Positions 1,749 through 62,155 of a stretch of 64,000 bases of DNA are shown here, in pieces. The position numbers and the translations under genes were made by a program. A model generated the notes under the pieces. It worked only from the letters and a program-made list of their open reading frames with translations. It had not been told where the DNA came from and made no database searches. The DNA comes from a virus: positions 40,621 to 104,620 of IMG/VR virus record IMGVR_UViG_3300045988_174111; one strand, 5' to 3'. Numbering within the stretch: position 1 is the stretch's first letter; the number at the start of each line of letters is the position of its first letter.

Positions 1749-2711
1749 CTAAATTGTTTTCATGATTTGTTCTTCGATTTCTTCCGCAAGGTCAATGTCG
1801 CTTGAGATTATCTCACGAGCCTTTTCTTGACCCTGTGCCAGCGTCTTTCCTTTGTATTTAAAGAACGAGCCAGCCTTTTCAATGATTCCCCGTTCAACTC
1901 CTACGAGTAACAGTTCCGAAGCCTTATCAATTCCCTCACCGAAGCGAATGTCGAACTCGGCTTTCCTGAACGGAGGCGCAACCTTATTCTTCTCAACTTT
2001 CACCTTGATGTGGTTAGCGGTTTCTTCGCCACGGTCTCCAACTGTACCCGACTTCGCAATGTCCAACACCTGCGAAGAGTAGAAGCCAAGAGCCTTTCCT
2101 CCTGGAGTAGTCTTCGGTGAACCGTACACCACGCCAATCTTGTCACGATACTGATTGATGAAGATTACCAACTGTTGGTTCAGTTTAATGTCACCAATCA
2201 ATCCGGGAAGCCACGTAGCCATAAGCCGAGCCAGCACGCCCATCTTAGCATCACCCACATCGGCTTCCAAATAACATTTAGGGAACATTGCCGCCACCGA
2301 GTCCATCACGATTGCTCCGATTGCTTTCGACTTAACAGCCTCTCTCATGATTTCGAAACATTCTTCCGCAACTCCTGGTTGGCACAGAATAAACATCTCC
2401 GGAGATATGTTCACCCCCAGTGCTTCTACATAATCCATGTCAATTGCGTTCTCACGGTCTATGTAGAGAACCGCTTTGCCCGTCTGTTCCTGTATGTTCT
2501 TACAGGCTGTCAGAGCCAACGTAGTCTTTCCTGAAGACTCGTAGCCACGCAATTCAATGATACGACCCATCGCATAACCGCCACCAAGTGCCAAGTCGAG
2601 CGACAGGCTTCCTGACGATACGAACTCTACTCCTTGAGTATTGTTTCCCGCCACAACTTCTTTGCCGAACTTCTTTTGTAGGGAGTTCACCAAATCTTCT
2701 ACTCCTGCCAT
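1749..2711 (-). CDS. recA: RecA/UvsX-family recombinase
   Basis: Walker A GYESSGKTTLAL. MDSVAAM and VIFINQYRDKIGVVYGSPKTTPGGKALGFYSS match the RecA core motifs. Ends in TAG. Confidence 0.93.
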   Translation of the reverse strand: MAGVEDLVNSLQKKFGKEVVAGNNTQGVEFVSSGSLSLDLALGGGYAMGRIIELRGYESSGKTTLALTACKNIQEQTGKAVLYIDRENAIDMDYVEALGVNISPEMFILCQPGVAEECFEIMREAVKSKAIGAIVMDSVAAMFPKCYLEADVGDAKMGVLARLMATWLPGLIGDIKLNQQLVIFINQYRDKIGVVYGSPKTTPGGKALGFYSSQVLDIAKSGTVGDRGEETANHIKVKVEKNKVAPPFRKAEFDIRFGEGIDKASELLLVGVERGIIEKAGSFFKYKGKTLAQGQEKAREIISSDIDLAEEIEEQIMKTI

Positions 2712-3763
2712 TGCATTACTTCTTTTAATAGTTTATATCCTTCATCATATTCGTAGCCTTTTTCATCGCAAAATGCTTTGAACTTTTCGGCTATATCTGT
2801 TCCGGACAGTTCCTGAACCACTTCGGCTTCCTCAGCCTCCGTGACTTCAACGTCCGTGTACTTTGCTTTCACCGAGATACCGTGTTCGGTGAAGACTTTT
2901 TTGTTGACAGCCTTAACAGCCTGTTGGTCTCCCACAAGCGTTATCCGAACGTTGATGCCATCTGTGTTCGTTTTAGCGAGTTTTAATATCTCTTCCTTTG
3001 AGGTCTTAAGGACATCAACTTTTATTTCCTTATACGGAACGAATTGAGCCTTTACGAACTCGAAGGACGTATCGCTGTACAATACCGTAAATCCCTTCTC
3101 CTCATCTTCCCCGAAGTTATTCTGACGGGTACTCGGTAGGTGAAACACGTTGGCTCCTGGTTGCTGAGCGTCATGATAGTGTCCCAGCATGACCTTTCCG
3201 TACTTCGAGAACAGTTTCAACGGAATCTTGTTATTCACGACCTTCCCATCATTATTGATAGAACCCTGTACGGCTGTATGGCTGAACAGGATTGATATCT
3301 TACTCTTCGGAGTAGGTAGTTCAGCGAACTTCTCCAACCATACGTCTTGTGCGTAGAATGGTAAGAAGTGGCATTCAACCCCTTTCAGGTCTATACACGT
3401 AGGAACTTCAAAAAGATTGAAGCCTGGATGATATTTATATGATGTCAAAAAACTTTCGTCAGACTCATAATCAGTTTTATCGTGATTCCCAGGAATACAA
3501 ATCAAAGTAATTTCATTTTCATTGTACAATTCTATCATTTCCGTCAAACACGAAAGAAGTTCCTGTCTTTGACTTAATCTCGAATCAAATATATCCCCCA
3601 GCCATATCACAATGTCAACGCCTTTTTCTTTTGCCAAAGCTATTTCCTGCTCGGCAATATTCATAAGCTCAACTGCATTTGATTCTTGTAAATGCTTATC
3701 CGTACTTATTATTGCGATAGGTTCTTTTCCCATAATCGACTTTTTAATTGAAAGCCCAGACAC
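2699..3763 (-). CDS. SbcD/Mre11-family nuclease (metallophosphoesterase)
   Basis: Calcineurin-like phosphoesterase motifs ISTDKHL, WLGDIFD, PGNHD and GHYH. Paired with the SbcC-like ATPase gene. Confidence 0.85.
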   Translation of the reverse strand: MSGLSIKKSIMGKEPIAIISTDKHLQESNAVELMNIAEQEIALAKEKGVDIVIWLGDIFDSRLSQRQELLSCLTEMIELYNENEITLICIPGNHDKTDYESDESFLTSYKYHPGFNLFEVPTCIDLKGVECHFLPFYAQDVWLEKFAELPTPKSKISILFSHTAVQGSINNDGKVVNNKIPLKLFSKYGKVMLGHYHDAQQPGANVFHLPSTRQNNFGEDEEKGFTVLYSDTSFEFVKAQFVPYKEIKVDVLKTSKEEILKLAKTNTDGINVRITLVGDQQAVKAVNKKVFTEHGISVKAKYTDVEVTEAEEAEVVQELSGTDIAEKFKAFCDEKGYEYDEGYKLLKEVMQWQE

Positions 3764-3788
3764 ACGTGTCTGGGCTCATATTCAATTA

Positions 3789-5201
3789 TTAATTTGCTTT
3801 TTTCTTGTTTCGCATTTCGCGAATACGTTCAATTGCACTTTTGCCTGAAGAGCTTCCCGCATCACTAGGGGGATTTACACCCGCAGGAGCTTCTGGTTCA
3901 GGCTCTGGCTCTGGGTCTGGGTCATCATCCGTTGTTCCTTCGGCCTCTTCGTCGACACCATCCCATCCAGGAACGTGTTCAATATCATAGCCAAGGTCTT
4001 CATGTTTTAAAGCCAACTGGTAAGCTTCTTCAAGCTCTTCGCCCTCAAGTTCCAAAGCTTCATAGCCATCTCCATACTGACGAATAAATTCTTCATTGAC
4101 CACTTTCAATTTGTCTTCCGGAGTAGGTTCAGCAGCCTTTTTCTTTGTTACAGCCTTTTTCGCCGGAGTCTTGGCAGCTGGCATAGGTTTTCTAGCAGCT
4201 TGCGGTTCCGGAGCTTTTTCTTCTTCCTTGTTCGGGTCAAAAGGTAAATCATCATCCCCAGACGGTGAATCACCTGCTTTCTCTTCTACCATACCTTGAA
4301 GTTCTTCAACCATGTCGAGGAAATCATCCTGTGCGAAAATCTTGTAGGAGTTTGCATCATCAAAACGCTTCAGACCGTCAAGGGCGAGGTCAAAATCGCG
4401 TTTTGTGTACGAATTAACATACAGTTTTTGAAGACTGGGCAAACCTTCCAATTCTTCAAGAATTTTATCAGGTACAGCATTTTTTTCAAAATAGTCATCC
4501 CAAGTCTGGCCCATTTTCAATGGCAACGACTTAATAGTTTCAACAGTCTTGTTATTGTCGTCTTTTCCGCGACTCCATTGAATAGGGAAGCCCGTTGTCG
4601 GGTCGGAAAACATATCAATCGCTGCAGTATCGTTTTGGGCACACAAATCAGCAGACTCCTTATTCAAGGCTTCCATCTGTTTTGGTTTCAGGCTGTCACG
4701 CCAAATCTTACCCTCAATCAGCGCATAATATACATATTCCAACTGGGGGCGAATTCCTGGAACCCAAGTTCCGTTTTTCCCACCCATACGATACCCCGTG
4801 ATAGGATTCAGGAATCGAGCACGTTCATCTTTGTCCTGGATTTGTTCCGCCTGTTCATATACTCTCTTGATGTACTCTTCGATGATATCGAACGGATAAC
4901 CGCCATGAAGCGTCGCAAGGAAAATTTTCTTATTAGCAATTTTCTTCCCAGTTACTTTTCCGTCCTTGTCCTTTTCATCGACTTCGCATTTCAGCATAGC
5001 TGTCAGCATAGGAACATACGGACTATCTCCTGGCTCATGTGCCGGAAGAACACGCTTAATGGTGATACCGTCTTTCTGTTTCCAAAACTGAGCATAGTCC
5101 CCTTTTTGACCATAATAAGTGTCATACTGTTTAGTTTGCTGAACTGTGTCGCTTACTGTAGAAAGTGGCGCGGCTTTCCATTTACTTCTGTCTAATGCCA
5201 T
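3789..5201 (-). CDS. Hypothetical protein, possible ssDNA-binding or replication accessory protein
   Basis: 470-aa ORF between the recombination and polymerase genes. It has an internal GDDDLPF motif like the bacterial SSB C-terminal tip, followed by AKKA/PEPEPE low-complexity sequence. The function is inferred only. Confidence 0.4.
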   Translation of the reverse strand: MALDRSKWKAAPLSTVSDTVQQTKQYDTYYGQKGDYAQFWKQKDGITIKRVLPAHEPGDSPYVPMLTAMLKCEVDEKDKDGKVTGKKIANKKIFLATLHGGYPFDIIEEYIKRVYEQAEQIQDKDERARFLNPITGYRMGGKNGTWVPGIRPQLEYVYYALIEGKIWRDSLKPKQMEALNKESADLCAQNDTAAIDMFSDPTTGFPIQWSRGKDDNNKTVETIKSLPLKMGQTWDDYFEKNAVPDKILEELEGLPSLQKLYVNSYTKRDFDLALDGLKRFDDANSYKIFAQDDFLDMVEELQGMVEEKAGDSPSGDDDLPFDPNKEEEKAPEPQAARKPMPAAKTPAKKAVTKKKAAEPTPEDKLKVVNEEFIRQYGDGYEALELEGEELEEAYQLALKHEDLGYDIEHVPGWDGVDEEAEGTTDDDPDPEPEPEPEAPAGVNPPSDAGSSSGKSAIERIREMRNKKKAN

Positions 5202-6195: not shown

Positions 6196-9100
6196 TTATA
6201 ACGTCAAAGTCACTATATTCGTTTCGAAATTCGCTCTTAAAATATTTGAATCCTTACGATTATCGTATGACAAACAACCATTTATAATAATTAAGTTCGA
6301 GCGGCTTCCCTCTAAAAGAGATGCCAATTGCTCATATTCCTGTTGAAATATAATGACTTCTAAGAATTCGTAATTTGCCTCTAAAATCAATCTGCACATA
6401 GTGTCACCTTTCCGAGTCTTTTTAATTTCCATATCGGAAACATAACCCGACACAACGACATATCCATTGTTAGGGCGGGAATCCGTATCATTACAGTCTT
6501 CTACATTCGCAAATTCATAGGCATCCGGGAATTCTGACTTGAATCTTTCAAAGATTTGTTGATAGTCAAAGAAGGCCAATCCTGAAACTTGTTTTTGTAG
6601 CAAAGCCCACCACCAAGAATCATTTGCGTGTAAATCCGCTCCTGACAGTACAGGGTCGTCGTCTTTTACTTCTGCTTTAACCCCTACTAAAAAGTCAACA
6701 AGCAAATCAATTCGCTTAGAAATATCAGTAATGCCTTCTAATTTGTCAAATGCCCCTGCCAAAATTAAATTTCGAATAATTCTATTATTCACAGCAGAAC
6801 CTTTCCATTTGTGCCTTGTAATAAAATCATTCAAAGACCAATACTGGCCATTTTCTTTGCGTTCCTTAATAATTTGAGTCGCGGCTTTTTCTGCGACTTG
6901 TTTTACCCCAGTAATTGACCAATATAACGCCTTTTCTTCGAAATTAATCACTACGTCAACATCGGAAACATTAATGTCAACTGGGCGAACTGTGCAAACG
7001 CCTGTCTTATTTATTTCTGCAATGTATCTTGAGTAATCTGTGTCCAAAGCATATTTAAACGCAACTGACCAATACTCAATAGGATAGTGAACCTTTATCC
7101 ATTGTGAAATATAGCCTGTAATCGCATAGGCAGCAGCGTGGCTTCGGTTGAACAGGTACGTCGAAGCCTTATCAATAGCGTCCCACACCTTTTCAGAGTA
7201 TTCCTGGGTGACGTTATAGTTGTCCCGATAGTAAGGGATAAACCGTTCTTTATACTGCTGGAGAGCCTCGTATTTCTTCTTTACCATCGCTTTACGAACA
7301 TCATCGGCTTCCACCAATGACAGCCCACCCAACTCACGACAAAGTTGCATGATTTGTTCTTGGTAGCAATTATGGACAATTATTCCTCCAACTGTGAAAC
7401 TATGAATATTTTCGACAGAGATATCATAGACCACCCTCTCCTCATCGTGTACAACTTCCTTCACCCTCCCCCACATATAATTCGTAGGAGATTTTCTTGA
7501 AATTTTCTTTTTAGAAAGCATTCGATACGGTAAACAATAAAACAAATCTTTCCAAGAAACTGTCAATTTATTCAATCGGGGGAAAATAGAAGAATGAATC
7601 TGATAAGACTGTAAAGCAAAATATATGTCCTCAAGAAGAGAATTATTGCACATCTTCAAAGTATCATTTTTCAGGCACCCATCGCCCTCTAATACCCCAG
7701 CAATCATATCCAAAGAATAATTACTTGGCAACCTTTTTTCATAGCAATTCTTCAGATAAAGTCCATATTTTTTCAAAAGACTATTAAATTTGTTTTCTTG
7801 ATAATTTTTACTAAAAAATCCATTCGATTTTCCTGAAACAGCTTTAACAGTCACTCTGATAGATTTACCAACATTTCCAGATTTTTTCACCTGTGAACGT
7901 TCTTTTATTGTAACCTCAAAATCAGAATCTAATTCAAGTAACAATTCCCTTAATCTATTTGCAATTTCAAGATTTGAAACTGTAAAATATGGAGAAGAAT
8001 GCGTCGAAGTTCCTTCCGCAATAAAATACCCAATTAACCAATGCTCAAGTTTTTCCCTCTCCGTCAAGGAGTCAATTCTTACAGGCTTTTCAAACCAACA
8101 TTTTAGTTCATCATTTTTAACAAGATTCTGAGCCTCCACCCATCCACGTTTTGTTAAAATTTTATGGTCTGGAGTACAAACAAGTTCCCTCCCAAAGTTA
8201 GAACGGACTCTAACTGTTTTCTTAACTCCATTATTTTTTAATAACAAAACTTTCTGAAAAGACCCGTCTTCAGTTTTAACCATATCCCCAGGAATAATAT
8301 CCTGGATTTTCTTAATTCCATTAAGAGTCAAAACTTCAGAATTTTCCGCAATACAGAAAACCCCATAAGTGTTATTAAGAATCGATTCCGTTCCAACGAA
8401 ATATTCTATCTCTTTCTTTCCTTCTTTTCTGACCACAAACTCATTGTGGAAGTTGTTCTCCATTGCTCCCGGACGATACAAAGAAATCGCTGCAATAAGG
8501 TCTTCAATATTATCAGGTTTCATTTGCTTACAATACCCTGTCAGCCCAGAACTTCCGAAGTGAAAATTATCTTCATTCCACCCATTCTTAAAGTATCGAT
8601 ATACCTCCTTGTCATCCAAAGGAATACTGAAAATATCCAAGTCCACACCTTCGTGTTCCTTAACTAAACGAACCATATCTTGGAATTTGTCAAACTGTTT
8701 CACTCCAAGAACGTCTTCCTTTAGGAAACCTGCAGCATCCATTTCACCGCCTTCCCATTCAGTCACATATTCATCACCGCTCTTTCGAATAGGAACCCAC
8801 CTAAACATGTCATTTTCATCCGGGAATACCATCATTGCACAAGCATGTATTGACTGAGCTTTAGGCGCAGGCATAATAAGCATTACTTCATTGATAAGGT
8901 CTGGGTGGCTCTTAACAAAATTCTTCACTTTCGAATTGGCACATGCAATTTTGAATAAATCTTCAGGTTTTCTGTCTTTAACATCAAAAGCCTTCATCAT
9001 CTCATTCGTAGACTGGAAATCTAGCCCATAAACTCTGGCCATATCCTTAATCGCAGCTCTTAGCTGAAGAGCACTATATGTTCCGACTGAACAAACCTGA

Positions 9101-10662
9101 TTCCACCCGTATCGTTCTTCCATGTATTTCTTGACACGAGGACGGTCTTCCCCAGGATAGTCACAGTCAATATCAGGAAGAGATACCTTAACACGACCTG
9201 CATTCAAGAAACGTTCAAAAAGTAGATTATACCTCATCGGGTCTAACTTCGTAATTCCAAGAAGATAGGAAACAAGACAGCCCCCAGCAGAACCACGGCT
9301 GATTCCAGTCATTATCCCATTTCTGTGACACCAATTAATAATATCCCACGTAATTAAGAAATAATCAATTGCATCACCCAATTTGATAACCCCTACTTCT
9401 CGGTCTATTCGCTCCATAATAACCTCTTCACCCCAATCCTCAATGAGGTCTGGGTGACGGTCAAGCCCATCCGATATAAGAGACCAAAAGAGGTCTTCAT
9501 TCGTTTCAAATTTCTTGGCTTCTTCTTTTGTCATTTTATAACGCGGTAAATGTCTTTTTTTAACGTCAATGACAAAAGTAATAGATTCGGCAATACTTTC
9601 AAGAAATTCCAAACCTTCTGTGAACCTTGAATAGACATCCATAAGGCCTTCATCTGTGTCTGGAAACATCTGTGAAAGCTCTGTAAATAATTGGTCGTTT
9701 GATTTGAAATATTGATTATCACTTTCGTATGCCGTTGTCCCTCCAATACTATGTAGGCGAGGCCTTATACAACTGTATTCTTCATCCAAATACCAAGCAT
9801 CAACCGACGGAACAGGTAGCAAATTTCTATCCATGAAGAACTTTTTCAAGTTCTTCAAATACCATTCGTCCCTACTGTTATCAACATATTCACATGGGTC
9901 AAGCTGATAGATAGCAGCATCCAAATTTAAACTTGATAAAACATCATAATCTAAGGTTTTGGGGTCCAGAAACAAAATCAAATCATCATTATCTCTCGTA
10001 ATTTGATTAAAATCTTGAAGGCCAATGTATTTTGGATTGTCACAGTTTATGAACTTATTTATCGTCAAAAGGTCTTTCCACCCCTTATCATTTCTTGCAT
10101 ACACTTTTACTGTGAATCTAATATCTCTTGGCTGGTCATATACGGTGCATTCCATCCCAATTATACTTTTCAGGCCGTTCTTTTGACATTCTGCCTGAAA
10201 CTTCAAAGAACCAGCTAGCGAATTCTTTTCACAAATCCCTAAAGTGTTAACTCCAAGAAATTTAGCTTTTTTACACCAATCAGAATACGTCCCGGAACCA
10301 GACATCATCTCATATTGGCCATGAACCCCAAGAAATACTTTAGTTTCAAATTCTTGTTTTGCAGCTCCAATATACTTCAATCGTGTCAACTTGACATCAT
10401 TTTCTTGCCCTTTTGACAACATGTAATACACCCCTCCAAATCGGTAAGCATAGAAGTCACAGTTTGTCTCAACTGTTCCATCTTCAGCCCCACGATTGGG
10501 GTCAGCAGGAATTCCAACAAAATTGAAACTGTCATCAAACATCGCTCCGTCAAAGGCTTCTTTATACAGCTCAAAAGTCTTGCCGCCAATTTCAACTATA
10601 TAGTCGGATAATTGTGTATAATCAAGTAAATTTTTTTCAAGGTATTCTTTAAATCTTTTCAT
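6196..10662 (-). CDS. dnaE: DNA polymerase III alpha (DnaE-type, PHP domain) interrupted by an intein
   Basis: PHP-like N-terminal region (LGVHGQYEMM...GICEKNSLAG). Palm and finger motifs GISRGSAGGCLVSYLLGIT, NLLFERFLN, SLPDIDCDY and ISLYRPG. The TYGVF / CYQEQIMQL...ADDVRKAMVKKK junction matches E. coli TYGIILYQEQVMQ once residues 770-1098 are removed. Confidence 0.9.
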   Translation of the reverse strand: MKRFKEYLEKNLLDYTQLSDYIVEIGGKTFELYKEAFDGAMFDDSFNFVGIPADPNRGAEDGTVETNCDFYAYRFGGVYYMLSKGQENDVKLTRLKYIGAAKQEFETKVFLGVHGQYEMMSGSGTYSDWCKKAKFLGVNTLGICEKNSLAGSLKFQAECQKNGLKSIIGMECTVYDQPRDIRFTVKVYARNDKGWKDLLTINKFINCDNPKYIGLQDFNQITRDNDDLILFLDPKTLDYDVLSSLNLDAAIYQLDPCEYVDNSRDEWYLKNLKKFFMDRNLLPVPSVDAWYLDEEYSCIRPRLHSIGGTTAYESDNQYFKSNDQLFTELSQMFPDTDEGLMDVYSRFTEGLEFLESIAESITFVIDVKKRHLPRYKMTKEEAKKFETNEDLFWSLISDGLDRHPDLIEDWGEEVIMERIDREVGVIKLGDAIDYFLITWDIINWCHRNGIMTGISRGSAGGCLVSYLLGITKLDPMRYNLLFERFLNAGRVKVSLPDIDCDYPGEDRPRVKKYMEERYGWNQVCSVGTYSALQLRAAIKDMARVYGLDFQSTNEMMKAFDVKDRKPEDLFKIACANSKVKNFVKSHPDLINEVMLIMPAPKAQSIHACAMMVFPDENDMFRWVPIRKSGDEYVTEWEGGEMDAAGFLKEDVLGVKQFDKFQDMVRLVKEHEGVDLDIFSIPLDDKEVYRYFKNGWNEDNFHFGSSGLTGYCKQMKPDNIEDLIAAISLYRPGAMENNFHNEFVVRKEGKKEIEYFVGTESILNNTYGVFCIAENSEVLTLNGIKKIQDIIPGDMVKTEDGSFQKVLLLKNNGVKKTVRVRSNFGRELVCTPDHKILTKRGWVEAQNLVKNDELKCWFEKPVRIDSLTEREKLEHWLIGYFIAEGTSTHSSPYFTVSNLEIANRLRELLLELDSDFEVTIKERSQVKKSGNVGKSIRVTVKAVSGKSNGFFSKNYQENKFNSLLKKYGLYLKNCYEKRLPSNYSLDMIAGVLEGDGCLKNDTLKMCNNSLLEDIYFALQSYQIHSSIFPRLNKLTVSWKDLFYCLPYRMLSKKKISRKSPTNYMWGRVKEVVHDEERVVYDISVENIHSFTVGGIIVHNCYQEQIMQLCRELGGLSLVEADDVRKAMVKKKYEALQQYKERFIPYYRDNYNVTQEYSEKVWDAIDKASTYLFNRSHAAAYAITGYISQWIKVHYPIEYWSVAFKYALDTDYSRYIAEINKTGVCTVRPVDINVSDVDVVINFEEKALYWSITGVKQVAEKAATQIIKERKENGQYWSLNDFITRHKWKGSAVNNRIIRNLILAGAFDKLEGITDISKRIDLLVDFLVGVKAEVKDDDPVLSGADLHANDSWWWALLQKQVSGLAFFDYQQIFERFKSEFPDAYEFANVEDCNDTDSRPNNGYVVVSGYVSDMEIKKTRKGDTMCRLILEANYEFLEVIIFQQEYEQLASLLEGSRSNLIIINGCLSYDNRKDSNILRANFETNIVTLTL
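7369..8355 (-). mobile_element. Intein (329 aa) with a double-motif LAGLIDADG homing endonuclease, inside DnaE
   Basis: Starts with CIAENSEVLTLNG (block A). Block B is CTPDHKILT. LAGLIDADG motifs are LIGYFIAEGTS and MIAGVLEGDGCL. Ends with VYDISVENIHSFTVGGIIVHN, with Cys at +1. I checked the codons: aca (C) at 8353-8355, att (N) at 7369-7371, gca (C) at 7366-7368. Confidence 0.9.
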
Positions 10663-40385: not shown

Positions 40386-43300
40386 TCAAGAAATTTTCCA
40401 AGAAGTATTTGTCGAAATTGAAAATTTGCTTGAGCCTCCAGTAGCCCCAAAAGATAAACTCGTAGGAGAAACGTCAAGATACAAAATTTTCGCAACCAAA
40501 TTTCTCGCTCCATTCACCGTAAATGAATAAGACAGATTTGAGCTTACCTTTCTACCATTTTCATACCAGCCATCAAAGACATCCTGGCTATTCTTTTTCG
40601 TACATGTTACAGTTGCCTGAGCCCCATAATTATAGGAACCACCTCCAGACACTGAGCCTCGACTAGAAGAAGAGCTTTCCATACCAATCGAAACTGTATA
40701 TGATTTAACGCTTCGAGTCCCTCTTGCTTCAAGTGTCAATGCTCCAGTAATATTAGTTGGGGCATAAGTTACTCCGGAAGAAACCTTCGAAGAACCATTA
40801 TACCAACCGTCAAATCCGTATGAATACTGAGCATTACTTGCCATAACCGTAGCAGTAGAACCTTGAGCATTAGAACCATAATTAACAGATTCACTTGCTC
40901 GGCTTACGGAAGAAATATAATTCCCTTTGTTATAAGTAACTGTATAGCTTCTCAAAGTACGAGTTCCTTTAGCCAAGTAAGTAGCATTTGCAGTTACCCC
41001 CGTAGGCGCAAAAGTCGCCCCAGAAGAAACCTTCGAAGAGCCATTATACCAACCGTCAACCCCATACGAATATTGGGCAGTAGTTGAATTAACCGTCATT
41101 GTTGAACCAACAGCATTTGTGCCATGCGCAACACGTTCTGACGAACGGCTCACACTTGTCACATAATCTCCAACTTGATAAGTTATTGTATAATATTTTT
41201 TCGTAAATCTTGCATAAACTATCACTGACGAAGTCACGTTCGAAATTGTATATGACAAGGAACTACTCAACAAAGAACCTCCACTTTCCCCAGCAGAATA
41301 CCACCCATCAAAATTATAACCAGCAGCCACTGAAGCAATAACAGTTGAATTGGCTCCATGATTAACTGTGCCTCCACCAGAAACAGTTCCACCGCTTGTC
41401 CCAAGTGTATAGTCCCCTGTTCCATCTGTATTGCGATAATATGCTTGTGGAGTTACAGTATAAGAATTTAGAGTTGCCTTAGCTGTAAGAGACATATTTG
41501 ACCTAACATCTGTGGGAGCATACGTCAAAGACGACGACTTTTTCGTTTCCCCTTCGTACCATCCATCAAATGTGTACCCCTCTATCACTGTCGCAGTACA
41601 CCCAACTGCATTTCCACCCCAATTCACAATTTCAGATTCTCTACTAATTGTGTCAATTCCAGTTCCCTTCAAATAAGTTACTGTATAAGAATTTATTGAA
41701 TATTCCGCAGTATATGTAGCGTCTCCAGTAACAGTAACTTCTCTTGACTTGGTCGTCACACCATCAGACCACTTCACAAATGCTTTTCCTTCTATTTCCA
41801 AAGCCGAAATCGTAACCTTTGTTCCATAATCATAAGTTCCGGAACCTGTTCCGTCAACAACTGTCAGCGTATATTTTCTCAATGAAGAAACTCCTCTTGC
41901 TTCGAAACTTCTATCTGAAGAAATATTCTCAATACTTAATATCAAATCTTCTCCAACCTTTTCACCATTTTCGTACCAGCCATCAAAAGAATAAGCCAAT
42001 TGAACCGTATTCTCAAGAAGAGTCGCTTCACATGTTGCAGTTCCACCATAATTAACAGATTCACTTTCTTTAGTAAGCGAAGCAATATTCGCATTCTTAG
42101 AATAAGAAATCGAATAAACATTGATAGTCGCAGAAGCAACCAATGTGCAATCTGATTGAATTGCTGATAATGTTGCAATTCCATCTAAAACATTCAAAGT
42201 TCCAGTTCCTGAAGTTTTTTCCCAAGTTGGAGTATTGTACCCAGTAGAAGCAACAGCCTTTTCAGAAGTTACTGTGCCATTATATGCAACTCTTTCAGTT
42301 GTTTTTGTTAAATCAACAACTCCAACTCCTTTAGAATAGGTGACAGAAAACCAATTTTTCTGAAATCTTGCATAAACTGTCATTGAAGATGTGATATTCT
42401 CCACCTCATAAGTTGAAGAATCACTAATTCGAGTATCCTCAGAATTATACCAGCCTTGAAAAGTATAACCAACCTTTGCAGAAGCGGTTAAAGTCGCTTT
42501 AGAGCCATAATCATACTCTCCCGAACCAGTCACTGTTCCTCCATTCGTTCCATCCGTAAACGAACCAATAGAATCCGCATCACGGTACTGGGGTAAACAT
42601 TCAATTGAAAAGGTTTTTATTACCCCCTTTGCAGTAAATTCTAAATTTTCCCTCACATTCAAAGGAGCATATTTTAACTCCTGACTGACACGAACCTCTT
42701 CTTCATTGTACCATCCATCAAAATTATACCCTTCTTCTAATTCTGCAACTGAACCCTCAGCATTGGAACCATATTCAACAGCTTCAATTTCAGGAGTAAC
42801 TGAAATAATTCCTTTCCCTTTCTTGTAAGTAACTGTATTGACAGACATTCCAAAAGAAGCAGCATAAGTTTCATCTTTCGTCACATTCGTAACGGTAAGC
42901 TCTAAAGTTTCAACCCCATTACTCCATCCACTAAATAAATGACCCGTATCAGGTGTGGCAGTAGAAGAAGCTGACCCACCATATTCCACACGGGCTGAAG
43001 TCGGGGACACTGTTCCTCCTGGGCCAGCAATAAATTTCAACGTGAACCACATACGCTGAAACCTAGCAGTCAAATTCCTTGAAGAATCCGCATTAAATGT
43101 ATATGACAAATCTTCAGAAATTTTCAATTCTCCATCATACCAACCATCAAACGAATAACCCTCGCTTGGAACTGCTTCAATCGTAACACTTTCTCCATGA
43201 TTAAAAGTTCCTCCACCAAAAACGGTTCCACCGTTCTCACCATCAAGAAAATCACCTGATTCAGCAATTCTATATTTCGACTTCAGATTAATATCGTAAC

Positions 43301-56235: not shown

Positions 56236-57570
56236 TTAATTCGATACAAATATCGGGTCTCCAACATAATCGGTTCCATGTTCATTTGCTGCCATAAATT
56301 CCTCATGAGGCGTCCGGACTTTCATTGGCCCAACCATTAAAGAATATTTCATTTCTTCGAGAAGATGTAACATATCTGAATCGTCACCTGTGTACACAAT
56401 CTCAAATTCTGTAAGACGGTTCGAAGACGGGTCGGAACTGTATCTTGTATCATGAATAACTAAAGGCTTCGTGAACTGAACATGCCCGTGCTCCCCAACA
56501 GTAGCTTCTTCTTGACCATTTAGCCCCTTAAAAATTGTTTCAAGACTTTTATTTGGGTCTCGCACAGGAATAACCAATTTCCTCTTATACTTATCCGATA
56601 TCTCCGCAACATTCTTTTCAGCTCCATCCATTGATTCAGGCTCAAGCGGCTTCACTGCTTCGATATCCATTGCCTTCTTCAGAATAGAAGTAAGACTAGG
56701 AACAAACACATCCTCAGAAATTCGACCTTCGTATAAAGCTTTCAGCAAAGGCTTCACTTCATCAATATTCGTTGGTTTGGCAAGCATTTCTAAGACAATC
56801 TTACCTTGCTCAAAGATAAAAGGCTTTAGCGGAATCTGACCTATCTCAATAAATTCTGCAAAACAATGTTCCGAAGCGTCAACTGTGACAGGCCGTGAAC
56901 TGTCAACATAAACCTGAAAATATTTTATATGGGCGTCAGCATTCTTGAACTCTCCCAAATATGTAACACCTTTGTCCGGCAACGGGTCAAGATTCGTTTC
57001 TTCTTTCAGTTCCCTAAGAGCAGCCGTCTCAAAGTCCTCTCCTGGGTCAACATGCCCTCCTGGAATACAAACCTTACCAGTAGGTAGGAAATCTTCTACA
57101 CGATGTAATATGAGAATCCTTCCTTCCTTGTCAAACACAATTACATCAGCGTATTTTATTGGCTCCCCAGTAATTGATTTCACGATTTCAAAATACATGC
57201 TCTTCATCAATCGGCCTTCTTTATAAGCCCTTTCGGCTTCGAAAAGAGTATCAATATTTTTGCAAATATCCCCAATTTCAGAATCCTTTCGATATTCTTC
57301 CATTGATTTCAATATCTTTTCGCGTTCATTGACAGCGGATGCGACTTCTTTCTGATGCACCTCAAGGAATTTTCTATATTTTTGAAAAACTTCGGTTTTC
57401 TTTTCCTCGGGCAAATAATCAACCTCATCAATGATTGATTTCTGAATTGAAAACTTATCGGACAATTCTTGCCCTAAATTTTCTAATTTTGACAGCCGCC
57501 CTCTCAATTTTTTATAATCTTCAACCTTTTCTTCGGTTGTCTTAATTCCTAAAAATTTCTTCAGATTCAT
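56236..57570 (-). CDS. Nudix-hydrolase-domain protein embedded in the head module
   Basis: Nudix box GGHVDPGEDFETAALRELKEETNL (G-x5-E-x7-RE-U-x-EE-x-[G->N]-U). It has an N-terminal coiled coil and an unassigned C-terminal domain of about 170 aa. Confidence 0.75.
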   Translation of the reverse strand: MNLKKFLGIKTTEEKVEDYKKLRGRLSKLENLGQELSDKFSIQKSIIDEVDYLPEEKKTEVFQKYRKFLEVHQKEVASAVNEREKILKSMEEYRKDSEIGDICKNIDTLFEAERAYKEGRLMKSMYFEIVKSITGEPIKYADVIVFDKEGRILILHRVEDFLPTGKVCIPGGHVDPGEDFETAALRELKEETNLDPLPDKGVTYLGEFKNADAHIKYFQVYVDSSRPVTVDASEHCFAEFIEIGQIPLKPFIFEQGKIVLEMLAKPTNIDEVKPLLKALYEGRISEDVFVPSLTSILKKAMDIEAVKPLEPESMDGAEKNVAEISDKYKRKLVIPVRDPNKSLETIFKGLNGQEEATVGEHGHVQFTKPLVIHDTRYSSDPSSNRLTEFEIVYTGDDSDMLHLLEEMKYSLMVGPMKVRTPHEEFMAANEHGTDYVGDPIFVSN

Positions 57571-57581
57571 AACATTATTTT

Positions 57582-59591
57582 TTAAACTAAATACTCTTTA
57601 TTTCCAATTGTTATCTTAGCTTTACTCTTTCGAGCCACTTTTCTTTCATAATCTTTAGGAGGCTCGAATTGACGTGTGTCAGGGTTCCATGAATAGCCTT
57701 TTGGTAGAGACCTTAAATCGCATCGACAATTATGAACAACTACTCCATCAGCAATATAACTTTCATCTTCTTCAACGGCAAAATTAAATAAATATTTCGA
57801 AAATAATTCTACTCTTTCAATTTTGGTTATCTTGGCTTCTAATCCATGAAATTTTCCTGAATGATTCTTAAACAAAAGTTTTAATTTTGCATACACTTCT
57901 TTTCCATTTTCACGAATTTCTGTTTCTGAAAATCTAAAAGTTTCAAAACCATACTCACGTTTCAAATCGCAATCACGAGTAGCATCGTATTCCTTCTTAT
58001 TTCTATGCCACTTTTCGCCGTCAGCTTCCAAAATAATATTGAATTTTGGAATAAAAATATCTGGGAAATATCCCCGAACATTATTTTCAAACTTTCCATT
58101 ATTAGGGATAAACTTCCCAAGTTCAAATTCAATTCCAATTCTTTTTAAGAAATATGAAAGTTTTTTCTCTATAAAAGTTCTCCCCTTACCATTTGTCGAG
58201 TTTGACTTACTCCTGCTTTCTAATAACCATCCGTATCCCTCAGAATGGTTTTCTTTAACTTTCTTTCGAGCATTTAATGTCAATTTCCGCTTATCTTCTT
58301 TTGACATCTTTTTATATCTATCCTTCATTTGCTTTGAAGCGCATTTTGAATTATACTCCCTTATCCAAGGATATTTTTCAAACTGTTCTTTAGCTGAAAT
58401 GCTATTTGTACAAGAGCCACAAATATCAAGATTGTAATTCTTAATAGGGAGAACTTGAATCAATTTTCCACAGGATTCACACTCTACTCCCTTTATTTCA
58501 AATTTATCCCCAACCTTAGCATATTGAATTTCTTTCCACTCTCCATTCAATAGTACTGGGTGATTTCCAGTAATCCTCTTTAGTACTTTTGTCGTTCTTT
58601 TTCCATACCGTGTTAAAACTTCAAACTCAACATTATAAATTTCCTCACTTCCAGAAACTTCCCTTTTATAAGTTTTCAAAACTTTCCGGAACCTATTCTT
58701 ATGGGTAAGAACCAAATCCCCGTATCTAATTTCGGAAATATTTTTCCACCCTTCAATGGTGAAAATCTTTGTTGATGGGGAGTTAAAACAAAACGGGTGT
58801 ACAGGGTGAATCGTAGCTTTCCAATCCTTGGACTTTACTCCATAATTTGTACCGTTCGCCATCAATTCTGACATGTGAAAAACCTTTGGTTCACTACCCA
58901 CCCCACCTTTTAAGTGTAGCCGTATGCAATGACGACAGGCTCCAGGAAAGACATCGAAGTAAACCAACGGGTCGGGGTCTTCTTCCATCATGATTTCGGC
59001 TCTTCCGAGATTATATATATCCTGGCTTTCAGTTTCAACAATTCTCCCCCAGTCCCTTTGCCAATCATTCATCTGATTTGCAAGGTTAGAAGCAATCTTC
59101 TTGACAGAACGTTTCTCGAACACGCCTTCAAGAAATTCCTTTCTAAGAGTTTCATCGGCCTTTGCTTGCTCTTGCGCCTGTAAATAACTAAGCTCTTCGG
59201 CGGAAATCGATGCTCTAACATCATTCTTAATACGGTCTGCAAAACCTTTTATATGAATATAAGTCTTATTTGCGGCCACTTTATAAAATGCCATTTCCCT
59301 CGCTGTTGGCTCAAATAAGCCCATTTTAGAAAGAAACTTAGCAAACTCGGAGTAAGTCATCTGAGAAGTTGCTTTTGTCCCAATAGCAGCGGAAACACGA
59401 CCAAAAAGAAACGCTTGATAATGGGAAGGGAATTTAGGAATCAGTTTCACCAAGTCAACCCCTTTCTTCTTCAGGAGCGCAAGGTCTTCAGTTGTTAGGT
59501 AGTCTTTCCCCAACACTTGTGCAACCATCTTCACTACTGCGAGGTCGATGTTTGTCAAAATCTTCTTTATTTCATCTTCCGTGAATAACAT
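57582..59591 (-). CDS. MuF/SPP1-gp7-like head morphogenesis protein interrupted by an intein
   Basis: The exteins give ...FPGACRHCIRL...ATIHPVHPF|CRCDLRSLP, which is the MuF CxxC ... HPxCRC signature. The gene follows the portal gene. Confidence 0.8.
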   Translation of the reverse strand: MLFTEDEIKKILTNIDLAVVKMVAQVLGKDYLTTEDLALLKKKGVDLVKLIPKFPSHYQAFLFGRVSAAIGTKATSQMTYSEFAKFLSKMGLFEPTAREMAFYKVAANKTYIHIKGFADRIKNDVRASISAEELSYLQAQEQAKADETLRKEFLEGVFEKRSVKKIASNLANQMNDWQRDWGRIVETESQDIYNLGRAEIMMEEDPDPLVYFDVFPGACRHCIRLHLKGGVGSEPKVFHMSELMANGTNYGVKSKDWKATIHPVHPFCFNSPSTKIFTIEGWKNISEIRYGDLVLTHKNRFRKVLKTYKREVSGSEEIYNVEFEVLTRYGKRTTKVLKRITGNHPVLLNGEWKEIQYAKVGDKFEIKGVECESCGKLIQVLPIKNYNLDICGSCTNSISAKEQFEKYPWIREYNSKCASKQMKDRYKKMSKEDKRKLTLNARKKVKENHSEGYGWLLESRSKSNSTNGKGRTFIEKKLSYFLKRIGIEFELGKFIPNNGKFENNVRGYFPDIFIPKFNIILEADGEKWHRNKKEYDATRDCDLKREYGFETFRFSETEIRENGKEVYAKLKLLFKNHSGKFHGLEAKITKIERVELFSKYLFNFAVEEDESYIADGVVVHNCRCDLRSLPKGYSWNPDTRQFEPPKDYERKVARKSKAKITIGNKEYLV
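57729..58790 (-). mobile_element. Intein (354 aa) carrying a Vsr/DUF559-like PD-(D/E)XK endonuclease plus a zinc ribbon
   Basis: Block A CFNSPSTKIFTIEGWKNISEI. Block B ITGNHPVLL. Blocks F/G YLFNFAVEEDESYIADGVVVHN, with Cys at +1. The insert holds CESCGK...CGSC and YFPDIFIPKFNIILEADGEKWH...YDATRDCDLKREYGFETFRFSETEI, which matches the DUF559 pattern DF..p....iE.DG..H...D..Rd..l...G....Rf. Codons checked: aca at 58788-58790, att at 57729-57731, aca at 57726-57728. Confidence 0.85.
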
Positions 59592-59755
59592 TATCTTTTC
59601 TTCTTTTGTATTTCAACCATAGTTTCAACTATATCTCCAAAAAGTTTTACAGAACTAAACGAATTCTTTCCATCGTCTTCGTACTGTTTTTGAACTTTAG
59701 GAAACCTCATTGGGTCAACATGATGATGAATCTTATTTACAGTTAGCTTCTTCAT
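59591..59755 (-). CDS. Small ORF (54 aa) translationally coupled between the portal and MuF-like genes
   Basis: Below the track cutoff. MKKLTVNKIHHHVDPMRFPKVQKQYEDDGKNSFSSVKLFGDIVETMVEIQKKKR. Its ATG overlaps the portal TGA (ATGA), and its TAA overlaps the next ATG (TAATG). It fills the whole gap. Confidence 0.5.
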   Translation of the reverse strand: MKKLTVNKIHHHVDPMRFPKVQKQYEDDGKNSFSSVKLFGDIVETMVEIQKKKR

Positions 59756-61482
59756 TTCTTAATTCCAAGTTGCTTGTCTATGTACTCTAAAGCTTTTCCA
59801 AGAATTGGGTTACTCTTAGATTTCTCTAACAGCATTGATTGAATGGCTTCATCGGCCGTCTGGGGGGAACCTTCTTCTTCGTCAACAATATTGTTCATAT
59901 CTTCACCACCCATCATCTTATTGGTTTGAATTGTTTGGTAAACTGAATTCAATATCGTATCCTTTTCAGGGTCGAACTTTCGAGCAGAATATTTATAGAA
60001 CATATCTTCCAAAGATACAAAACCAGCCTCAATTTTCTTTTTATCCAATTCAACTTGTGCGGCTTCATCCTCTATTTCAATGCCTGTAAATACAAGCTCA
60101 AGCCTATCATCAATTTCACTGATAATATATTTGTTCAAAATATTTTGATAAAATATCAACAGTGGAACGAGGCCTTTCTGTCGCGAATGGTCAAGTCTTT
60201 CCTTTTGCCCATCCTGGCCAAAAACGTGAGCCGCATCTTGGAATTGAAATCCTAACTCAGACGGGTCCATACGATACACTGCGCACGCAATTACCAATAG
60301 GAATTTTATCCATTCGGTGAACTCCATGTCGCGATTGGTCTGCTGTAAATCAATCCATTCAAGGTCAATTCCTTGAATCACGGGAATTTTGTGAGAATTG
60401 TAAACGGTACTCATCGTCTGTTTCCAATCTTGGCGAAACTCATTCAAAGTTCCTTGGTCAATATTCCCATTCTTTACATTAATAAACCCTTTCGGCTGGC
60501 TACCTTGTTTGAAGAAATTTCCATTGTATTGCATACCCCAAAGTATCCATGTAACAATCTCAATAAGCGTCTCAAGCTCAGAACAGCCATAGCCATTACG
60601 CATAACATTTGTAGACTTATTTCGAATTCCGTACCCCAATTCCCATGGATAAAATACAACATATTCATCGCTTACAGGGTGGCGAATAATCTGACCGTCC
60701 CAAACCATTGCATAACGGGGCAAATATCCATGCCATCTGAAATTCTCAAACATCTGACTATAACGGGGGTCATTTGTGTCAAGCTGTCTAATTAAAGCGG
60801 CATCTACGGCACGATACTTTTTCAGGCTCATATCTCTTGAACGAACTACTTCGAATGCCATCTGGTCAAGAACTAAGGAATCTCGCAAAACCTTTCTAGT
60901 AAATTCCTGGAAATTATCTTCACATTCCCATTTTTCATTTTCGCCACCTTCTTCAAGAAATTTAACAATGTATTCAACTATCTTCTTATCTTTTGCGGAC
61001 AGTTCCTTCTCTTCGTCTCCTTTAATTCCAAAACCTTTCTTATATCGAATTTGATATCCAGGCTTTTGGTCGTCAACGCTGTATTTTAAGAAGTTTTGAA
61101 CTTGCTCAATCCTCGTATTTATAATGGCTTTCACAATAAAAATTTCCCCCATTCGATTTAGGGTTCCAAAAGAAATCCCATTATTTGGGTCACGATACCC
61201 TTTTCCATTAAATCCAATTTCAGATGGATTCCACAAAATGGATTTGATTTCAGGCTGAAAAGATGTCTTTGAATTTTTATTCTGGGAAATAAAAGCTTGC
61301 GCCTTAATAACTTCTTCAAAAGATTCTGATGCCAACGCATTAGACAGCTTATTGTTCAAGGCCAAAGGGATAGACTTCGATAAAACATCAAGCTCTTCAA
61401 AAGAAAGCTTGTCTAAAATATTCATGGGGGAAACATTTGAATCCCCCATTTTTCTATTTCTATTTTTCCCTTTTCTTGACAT
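59752..61482 (-). CDS. Portal protein
   Basis: A protein of about 576 aa immediately upstream of the MuF-like, protease, scaffold and capsid genes. I moved the start to MSRKGKNRN (ATG at 61480-61482), just after the upstream TGA. The call rests on position and size. Confidence 0.6.
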   Translation of the reverse strand: MSRKGKNRNRKMGDSNVSPMNILDKLSFEELDVLSKSIPLALNNKLSNALASESFEEVIKAQAFISQNKNSKTSFQPEIKSILWNPSEIGFNGKGYRDPNNGISFGTLNRMGEIFIVKAIINTRIEQVQNFLKYSVDDQKPGYQIRYKKGFGIKGDEEKELSAKDKKIVEYIVKFLEEGGENEKWECEDNFQEFTRKVLRDSLVLDQMAFEVVRSRDMSLKKYRAVDAALIRQLDTNDPRYSQMFENFRWHGYLPRYAMVWDGQIIRHPVSDEYVVFYPWELGYGIRNKSTNVMRNGYGCSELETLIEIVTWILWGMQYNGNFFKQGSQPKGFINVKNGNIDQGTLNEFRQDWKQTMSTVYNSHKIPVIQGIDLEWIDLQQTNRDMEFTEWIKFLLVIACAVYRMDPSELGFQFQDAAHVFGQDGQKERLDHSRQKGLVPLLIFYQNILNKYIISEIDDRLELVFTGIEIEDEAAQVELDKKKIEAGFVSLEDMFYKYSARKFDPEKDTILNSVYQTIQTNKMMGGEDMNNIVDEEEGSPQTADEAIQSMLLEKSKSNPILGKALEYIDKQLGIKK

Positions 61483-61483
61483 A

Positions 61484-62155
61484 TCATTCAACAGTTGTTT
61501 CGGCAGAATAGTTTTCACCTGCGTATTTTACGGAAACTCCAAATTTCTTGTTTGTCGTAATTCCATCAGAAATTTGTAAATCTTTCTTTACTTCAAACAT
61601 AACGTAATTCTTCGTTTCTTTCTTTAATGTCAACACTTTATTGTCTTCACTACGTGTTCCAACGGCATCACATGATTCGGCAAAACTTGCTTCAGTATCC
61701 AAAGAAGATACCCCATAATTAATGGACAGCTCCATTTGGTATTTCCCATTTTCGTCAACCTTATCAAATGTCATCACAAGCCATGGTAATGAATCTTGAG
61801 ACGCCTCGTAGTCATACTGGTCGCGATAAGACTTTGGAACTACACTGTTATAGGATTCCTCATCAAAAGCAATCCCAACCTTCAGATTTTCTATTCGAGG
61901 AACAAAGTTCTGGGAAACTTCTGCGTCAATTTCGTCATTTGAACCATACACAACCAAATCGCATTCACACTTTTTAGCGATATTAATCATATTTGCAACT
62001 GAAACCTCGTCACCAGTTTTCAAAGAAAGCCCCAACGGAACCAATTTAGATTTATCCCCAAATATTCCGGTTACCATAAAATTCCCAATAGAACCAAAGC
62101 CATCAGTTTCAACTGTTACTCGGTCTTTTCCTTTCGTATAAACGTATTTTTTCAT
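61484..62155 (-). CDS. Hypothetical protein
   Basis: 223-aa ORF with its own promoter motif 23 nt upstream. Confidence 0.6.
   Translation of the reverse strand: MKKYVYTKGKDRVTVETDGFGSIGNFMVTGIFGDKSKLVPLGLSLKTGDEVSVANMINIAKKCECDLVVYGSNDEIDAEVSQNFVPRIENLKVGIAFDEESYNSVVPKSYRDQYDYEASQDSLPWLVMTFDKVDENGKYQMELSINYGVSSLDTEASFAESCDAVGTRSEDNKVLTLKKETKNYVMFEVKKDLQISDGITTNKKFGVSVKYAGENYSAETTVE

Follow-up and report, generated by a model that had tools for sequence, protein, structure and literature searches.

What kind of element interrupts the minor head protein gene of an uncultivated phage, and has its combination of parts been seen before? The question is raised by a stretch of DNA of 64,000 nucleotides (nt) (hereafter the window; positions 40,621 to 104,620 of IMG/VR virus record IMGVR_UViG_3300045988_174111), in which the gene for a 669-amino acid (aa) MuF-like head protein carries a 354-aa in-frame insert. 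We consider it very probable that the insert is a mobile class-1 intein with an in-frame Vsr-like/EDxHD (Pfam DUF559) homing endonuclease (HEN), situated before the first Cys of the HPxCRC motif of the head protein. The main additions of this analysis are strong comparative evidence of current mobility and the membership of the element in a large, unannotated family. The features discussed below are listed here from the whole gene to its parts.

57582..59591, minus strand: precursor gene for the 669-aa MuF-like minor head protein including the intein, a single open reading frame (ORF)
58791..59591, minus strand: N-extein, aa 1-267, ending ...ATIHPVHPF and including an upstream CxxC (GACRHC)
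58791..58850, minus strand: probable co-conversion tract, the last ~39-60 nt of the N-extein, identical or nearly so to intein-plus phages with diverged flanks
57729..58790, minus strand: intein, 354 aa, class 1 (Cys1, T74-x-x-H77, H353-N354, +1 Cys being the first Cys of CRC)
58482..58790, minus strand: Hint domain, N-terminal segment with blocks A and B, intein aa 1-103 (predicted beta strands at local confidence 86-97; hintN profile)
58410..58481, minus strand: four-Cys zinc ribbon (C104, C107, C124, C127), presumed to bind DNA, with the cysteines conserved among relatives
58245..58409, minus strand: basic three-helix region, intein aa 128-182, the presumed DNA-binding arm (predicted helices 125-139, 141-161 and 164-181)
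58185..58244, minus strand: flexible linker, intein aa 183-202, the sole segment with local confidence <50 and of differing length among relatives
57858..58184, minus strand: Vsr-fold nuclease core of DUF559/EDxHD type, intein aa 203-311, from profiles, Foldseek and substitution ratios
57729..57857, minus strand: Hint domain, C-terminal segment with blocks F and G, intein aa 312-354 (...LFNFAVEEDESYIADGVVVHN)
57582..57728, minus strand: C-extein, aa 622-669 plus stop, starting CRCDLRSLP

The insert and its host protein

The insert spans 'CFNSPSTK' to 'VVVHN' (aa 268-621 of the precursor protein) with junctions ...IHPVHPF|C...VVVHN|CRCDL, and its removal leaves a 315-aa extein reading ...IHPVHPF-CRCDLRSLP.... 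A preliminary description of the locus had placed a 354-aa insert at 57729-58790, splitting HPxCRC with the first Cys of CRC as the +1 residue; the ORF translation returns the same coordinates and length, and the junctions (HPF|C...HN|CRC) agree. At 32.0%, the G+C content of the intein compares with 42.3% for the N-extein and 37.7% for the whole window.

The same description called the insert an intein with canonical Hint blocks, and that identity is upheld: the insert is a class-1 intein of the Hint type, with splicing itself predicted. We draw this conclusion because the Hint fold, Cys1, the TxxH of block B (T74/H77), the terminal His-Asn (H353/N354) and the +1 Cys occur together as catalytic residues of a class-1 intein, and because intein-less alleles are contiguous across the site. 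The profile matches lie far above chance level: NCBIfam TIGR01443 (intein_Cterm) scored 21.8-25.7 bits, above its cut-off of 15.6, and Pfam Intein_splicing reached 35.5 bits (E=1e-8; gathering score 35.8). An AlphaFold2 (AF2) model of the intein, built from 23 homologues, has a mean predicted local distance difference test score (pLDDT) of 85 and a predicted TM-score of 0.72, and residues 183-202 form its only disordered stretch. With this predicted model as query, the top Foldseek matches of the Hint part in the PDB were the gp41-1, DnaB and RecA inteins (probability 1.00).

The host protein is accepted here as MuF-like, albeit a distant member. The spliced extein matches phrog_115 'minor head protein' (E=7.8e-11), and the portal gene (59752..61518, minus strand; Pfam Phage_portal) lies directly upstream of the precursor gene. 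Against Pfam Phage_Mu_F (PF04233) the spliced extein scores 13 bits (cut-off 29.6), and the unspliced precursor scores 17.6 bits against TIGR01641 (cut-off 39.65). Within its extein family, six of 16 members match PF04233 at E<=0.1 (best E=1.6e-5), and other hosts of the same intein allele exceed the MuF threshold at 46, 51.9 and 54.1 bits. In Pfam-positive hosts, CRC falls at positions 110-111 of the 112-position PF04233 profile. Across the extein family C219, C222, H265, P266, C268, R269 and C270 are invariant (CxxC...H-P-x-C-R-C), and the intein is located between x and the first Cys of this HPxCRC. The Cys residues at the junction probably form part of a zinc site. The label therefore rests on the phrog_115 match, the adjacent portal gene, the invariant CRC motif and the threshold-passing hosts that carry the same intein at the same site. 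The earlier proposal of a MuF-like head protein split at its signature motif holds on these grounds, with the window extein itself below the Pfam cut-off.

The nested nuclease

Inside the split Hint domain, the order of elements is zinc ribbon, helical arm, linker and alpha/beta nuclease core. The nested nuclease is, by profile and predicted structure, a Vsr-fold enzyme of the DUF559/EDxHD type and not Vsr proper. Pfam DUF559 (PF04480) scores 32.5-35.2 bits on the window nuclease and thus passes its cut-off of 20.6; all 14 nuclease cores of the intein family likewise meet the threshold (best E=3.5e-18). The same Pfam search listed no LAGLIDADG or HNH family for the insert at E<=1, as the preliminary description had anticipated when it named a DUF559/Vsr-type nuclease in place of these classes. 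A profile of the 14 cores, searched against the PDB, matched I-Bth0305I (3R3P; E=3.8e-15), a DUF559 protein (3HRL; E=2.8e-14) and Vsr (1CW0; E=7.7e-7). A single-sequence phmmer search of the PDB with the intein gave no significant match, and the family profile was needed to reach 3R3P, 3HRL and Vsr. By structure, the best Foldseek match of the core in the PDB was the catalytic domain of I-Bth0305I (3R3P; TM-score 0.77 on target), followed by weaker matches to AbaSI, PvuRts1I and Vsr (1CW0). The assignment to the Vsr fold and the DUF559/EDxHD type follows from these PDB matches, the DUF559 scores and the conserved residues below. The profiles of the Vsr family proper remained far below threshold (TIGR00632, 16.8 bits versus 97.85; Pfam Vsr, PF03852, 13.4 bits versus 27), and the TIGR00632 score is our reason for excluding Vsr itself.

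The nuclease motif of the window intein reads D244...E255-x-D257-G258-x-x-W261-H262...R272. Among 12-14 homologues that are 22-57% identical, E208, D244, E255, D257, G258, W261 and H262 are invariant or nearly so, and the candidate catalytic residues (E208, D244, E255, D257 and H262) are all intact in the window copy. A D/R cluster (D269, R272, D273) lies downstream of W-H. The zinc ribbon followed by a D-(x)n-E-x-DG-x-x-H...R pattern, which had been read from the window alone, is thus present as C104/C107/C124/C127 and D244-R272 and is conserved across the homologues.

The zinc ribbon and helical arm are presumed to be the DNA binders. Pfam DUF2116 ('probable treble clef') matched the zinc ribbon in four of 12 relatives. 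No NUMOD-type DNA-binding motif was found by Pfam (E<=0.1) in the HEN modules of the 12 relatives; NUMOD3-like motifs had been suspected in the basic helices and were dropped on this result. PF07460 was found only in one distant free-standing relative, P0181.

Distribution, mobility and alternative explanations

The preliminary description proposed that related phages be surveyed for intein-minus alleles at HPxCRC, and these turned out to be the closest extein relatives: intein-less 315-aa proteins, 88-94% identical in aa to the spliced extein, with DNA alignments that are contiguous through the insertion site. They are abundant, as two allele clusters comprise 694 and 161 members on contigs of ~100-110 kb. 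L008 and L010 (gene at 3001-3948) are examples of intein-less alleles. Intein-plus phages show the converse pattern, in which similarity is concentrated in the intein. Its DNA is 99.3% identical between the window and L004 (flanks 71-77%), 99.5% between the window and L006 (flanks 76-81%), and 99.6% between the window and L012 (flanks 74-78%). The tracts of identity end 39-60 nt upstream of the Cys1 codon and 6 nt past the Asn codon; upstream, mismatches begin at -61 relative to L012 and L006, and relative to L004 they occur at -10 and -40 and are dense beyond. More divergent intact copies of the intein, at 72-86% aa identity, were found in IMG/VR. Such near-identical copies in diverged flanks suggest that the intein is active and mobile, and that it may still be spreading among phages.

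Ratios of nonsynonymous to synonymous substitution (dN/dS), estimated by NG86, indicate purifying selection on every domain. For the window and L013 the ratios were 0.05 (Hint), 0.09 (zinc ribbon/helical arm) and 0.07 (nuclease core); for L013 and L014 they were 0.12, 0.10 and 0.06. Overall, values lie at ~0.05-0.15 across all domains including the nuclease, with 0.07-0.10 for the zinc ribbon/helical arm and 0.05-0.15 for the core. Other same-site relatives (P0003, P0006-8, P0012-14, P0016 and P0025) have the nuclease deleted, with differing end points; in P0003/L005, for example, the deletion joins 'LDICG' directly to 'FSETEIRE'. Free-standing proteins that combine zinc ribbons with the same C-terminal DUF559 core (P0160-P0171, P0181) are a possible source of the intein nuclease, and no free-standing paralogue that could serve as donor occurs within the 64-kb window.

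The anatomy, the fold and family assignments, the sporadic distribution, the near-identity limited to the intein and the purifying selection are established for the reading that we favor. Splicing, cleavage, where the cut falls, what the zinc ribbon does and whether a nick or a double-strand break results are the parts that we infer, and the proposed cycle would run as follows. Translation would yield the 669-aa precursor, from which the Hint domain (intein aa 1-103 and 312-354) would excise itself through an acyl shift at Cys1, transesterification to the +1 Cys, cyclization of Asn354 and an S-to-N shift, giving a 315-aa head protein with HPFCRC intact and releasing the 354-aa intein. When a related intein-less phage infects the same cell, the intein would then cleave the empty allele by the HPF|CRC codons (in DNA, near ...CACCCNGTNCAYCCNTTY|TGTCGNTGY...), the zinc ribbon and helical arm holding the DNA and the EDxHD core cutting it. 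Repair by recombination off the intein-plus genome would bring in the intein together with ~40-60 nt of upstream flank. Once fixed, the nuclease would be free to degenerate, as the independently deleted derivatives may illustrate.

Several points weigh against this reading. The Intein_splicing score is 0.3 bits short of the Pfam gathering score, and block F (LFNFAV...ESY) is without the usual Asp and His, so that the efficiency of splicing should not be assumed. With no NUMOD motif detected in the presumed DNA-binding arm, the architecture is unlike that of I-Bth0305I; because Vsr is a nicking enzyme, double-strand cleavage by the nested nuclease is an assumption. L006 and L012 have a common pattern of upstream mismatches and thus represent, besides the window, two independent backgrounds with L004 rather than three. 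For the more distant pairs, dS is saturated. Finally, both protein splicing and DNA cleavage by the element are deduced from its sequence.

Alternatively, the insert may be a real intein whose nuclease has ceased to function in homing, with copies spread by ordinary homologous recombination in co-infection while the domain decays. Many relatives have already lost the nuclease, the E-x-D positions are substituted in P0029 (IFVNGDYWH), and phage genomes are mosaic anyway. Recombination of this kind fits poorly with identity tracts that, in two independent backgrounds, stop <=6 nt from the C-junction and 39-60 nt beyond the N-junction, and decay fits poorly with dN/dS of 0.05-0.15 for the nuclease core and DNA-binding arm and with a window copy that keeps every candidate catalytic residue. 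We regard this explanation as unlikely.

More doubtful still, at a low probability, is a domesticated or cargo module, in which the nuclease, spliced out or not, would be packaged with the MuF protein and delivered to the host in the manner of MuF polymorphic-toxin C-termini, acting on host or competitor DNA in place of promoting its own copying. Weak Pfam PT-HINT matches (25 bits, cut-off 27.7) point in this direction, as does the occurrence of the same intein family in MuF-toxin fusions with Zeta-toxin or PARP-like C-termini. Yet the nuclease is placed within the Hint fold and not behind it, the C-extein supplies the rest of the MuF motif, the insert is absent from the closest relatives, and the conversion tracts bear the signature of a selfish element; on these points we rejected a PT-HINT or polymorphic-toxin identity. 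An assembly or annotation artefact, with a chimeric contig fusing a nuclease gene into a head gene, might be suspected from the metagenomic source and an intein G+C of 32%, lower than the flanks, and has a negligible chance of being correct given the single uninterrupted reading frame and the recurrence of the architecture in independent ENA, Logan and IMG/VR assemblies and in most of the new clusters described next.

The intein with its in-frame nuclease is also far from alone. An exhaustive search of metagenome proteins (clustered at 50% identity) with a hidden Markov model of the nuclease module returned 169 cluster representatives at E<=1e-30. Of the best 145 new cluster representatives, 126 contain all three parts (Hint-N, nuclease and Hint-C) in a single reading frame, and most of these inteins occupy the MuF site seen in the window. 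In 128 intein instances, the starting Cys is present in 121 and the terminal His-Asn in 122. Their +1 to +3 residues are CRC (79), CRS (14) or CRT (3), and most of the remaining instances use other Cys positions in MuF-like proteins, with about ten displaced by two residues (HPxCR|C) and further insertion sites at FHMDR|CG, HPKFDV|CD and the first Cys of CxxC. A tblastn search of 50,697 GenBank phage records with the window protein and a central family member found no in-frame relative and returned only Hint-domain matches and the antisense ORF of phage Malisha (below), which is probably why the family has escaped description. The nearest named relatives make a Bacteroidota host probable.

Within the family, the intein of P0011, P0217, P0209, P0232, P0305, P0308 and P0325 precedes the second Cys of CRC (e.g., LHSGCR|C...VVVHN|CLKVG), and closely related inteins such as that of P0015 sit before the first. 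Such use of neighboring sites by close inteins suggests that the insertion point can slide between adjacent Cys codons. P0233 and P0269 each carry two inteins of this family in one MuF-like protein, at the CxxC and CxC motifs, and each intein has its own nuclease.

Separate observations concern the surrounding genes. In the human faecal phage L001 (MT835500.1), a free-standing 151-aa ORF (3954..4409, plus strand) directly follows the stop of an intein-less MuF gene and is 46% identical (E=1e-39), over its full length, to the MuF mini-intein of P0082. It is without Cys1, the TxxH block and the terminal Asn, has no Pfam match, and looks like an intein copy that moved out of the gene and is splicing-incompetent. 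Just 5' of the same MuF gene, a 403-aa ORF (1755..2966, plus strand) resembles TnpB/IS605 OrfB by eye only. In the window, the downstream neighbor of the precursor gene (56236..57570, minus strand) is a NUDIX gene, unusual beside head genes, whose 444-aa product has the domain (65.6 bits) at its center; the gene is kept at the same position in relatives, and the L007 version is fused to ferritin/rubrerythrin-like domains. The window also encodes a second intein, of the canonical LAGLIDADG type (329 aa; 7369..8355), within a 1488-aa DnaE-like DNA polymerase III alpha (6196..10662, minus strand). Its junctions read ...TYGVF|CIAENS...GGIIVHN|CYQEQ, and the protein matches Pfam DNA_pol3_alpha, Intein_splicing (51.8 bits) and LAGLIDADG_3.

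Comparison with known systems

Vsr-like 'EDxHD' nucleases are an established HEN family, found beside split inteins and in group I introns (PMC2677866, PMC3239194). Dassa et al. 2009 defined Vsr-like HENs as ORFs that stand free between the halves of split inteins or occur in group I introns, and their fractured-gene model (steps IIa/IIIa) foresees an in-frame state; Taylor et al. 2011 characterized I-Bth0305I and named the EDxHD family. Recently, a preprint on actinophage inteins (2025; 10.1101/2025.01.02.630785) reported MuF-like minor capsid proteins of Gordonia phages as a new intein host. All of its MuF inteins are associated with non-canonical endonucleases, either an antisense LAGLIDADG ORF (Barsten, Nordenberg, Lennon) or a Vsr-like ORF (Malisha, Vivi2, Angelicage), and it notes that Vsr-like endonucleases are otherwise known with split inteins only and predicts the contiguous state. 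Two of these cases were checked. In Barsten, a homologous intein occupies the same site, its endonuclease is an antisense LAGLIDADG ORF, and its in-frame middle is not a nuclease; in Malisha, the intein lies at ...SHDN|C...VHN|CKC and the Vsr-like ORF is antisense.

The suggestion of an undescribed intein/HEN combination consequently stands in part. The Gordonia cases and the EDxHD family mean that the pairing of host and nuclease class is not new. The literature searched holds no report of an in-frame, contiguous fusion of a Vsr-like HEN and an intein, although two papers predicted one, and within that literature the architecture appears to be new. It is, at the same time, anything but rare: the combination recurs, mostly at this site, in more than 100 metagenomic clusters, all unannotated. 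The preliminary description would have counted many catalogued cases at the site as a refutation; such cases exist as sequences and are absent from the literature searched. We lean, by a modest degree, toward a broader view in which the window intein is a member of a large undescribed family with a contiguous, in-frame EDxHD/Vsr-like HEN that is specialized on Cys codons in the zinc-knuckle-like motifs of MuF head proteins (mainly HPx|CRC, with variants two aa off and two or three other Cys sites) and appears to be moving now between related uncultivated phages. It would represent the in-frame end state foreseen by Dassa et al. 2009 and the 2025 survey and, with its antisense and free-standing relatives, would form a natural series of endonuclease gain.

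For bifunctional inteins, this adds a third in-frame endonuclease class next to LAGLIDADG and HNH, and the contiguous state supplies a predicted but previously unobserved stage in models of endonuclease capture. One insertion site now presents four states, namely (i) an antisense LAGLIDADG ORF, (ii) an antisense Vsr-like ORF, (iii) an in-frame Vsr-like module, and (iv) a nuclease-deleted mini-intein; together with the free-standing nuclease relatives, they make endonuclease gain and loss by inteins directly comparable. In practice, head proteins with this intein are unannotated or mis-sized in phage metagenomes, which recognition of the intein puts right. Two candidates for enzymology and protein engineering also emerge: an EDxHD enzyme that is compact, apparently active and has a defined natural target, and an intein flanked by Cys.

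Relative to the Gordonia MuF inteins, the window element shares the host family and site (…N|C…HN|C[RK]C) and a homologous splicing domain (LYNFAVDEDESYIAAGIAVHN in Gordonia, LFNFAVEEDESYIADGVVVHN in the window), and its nuclease belongs to the same superfamily as the Malisha ORF (tblastn, 36% over 75 aa); the Gordonia endonucleases are separate ORFs on the opposite strand, whereas the window nuclease is in the frame of the intein itself. With I-Bth0305I and other EDxHD enzymes (3R3P) it has in common the Vsr-type fold, the conserved acidic and His residues, a core located C-terminal to a longer DNA-binding region, and a phage-borne context. The known members of that group are separate ORFs (in group I introns, between split-intein halves, or free-standing), unlike the in-frame module of a contiguous intein seen here, and a four-Cys zinc ribbon and helical arm take the place of NUMOD. 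Vsr repair endonuclease and bacterial DUF559 proteins (1CW0, 3HRL) share the fold and the D...(E/x)xxGxxWH core motif; in contrast to Vsr proper, the window nuclease has the extra Glu typical of DUF559/EDxHD, and its context is a mobile element rather than repair. Finally, as in canonical bifunctional inteins (PI-SceI and PI-MtuI; LAGLIDADG, with some phage HNH), an in-frame HEN splits the Hint domain between blocks B and F, the insertion site is highly conserved, and the homing cycle includes loss of the nuclease. The window intein differs from them in its nuclease class, in its presumed DNA-recognition elements, and in a host protein that serves virion assembly rather than replication or repair.

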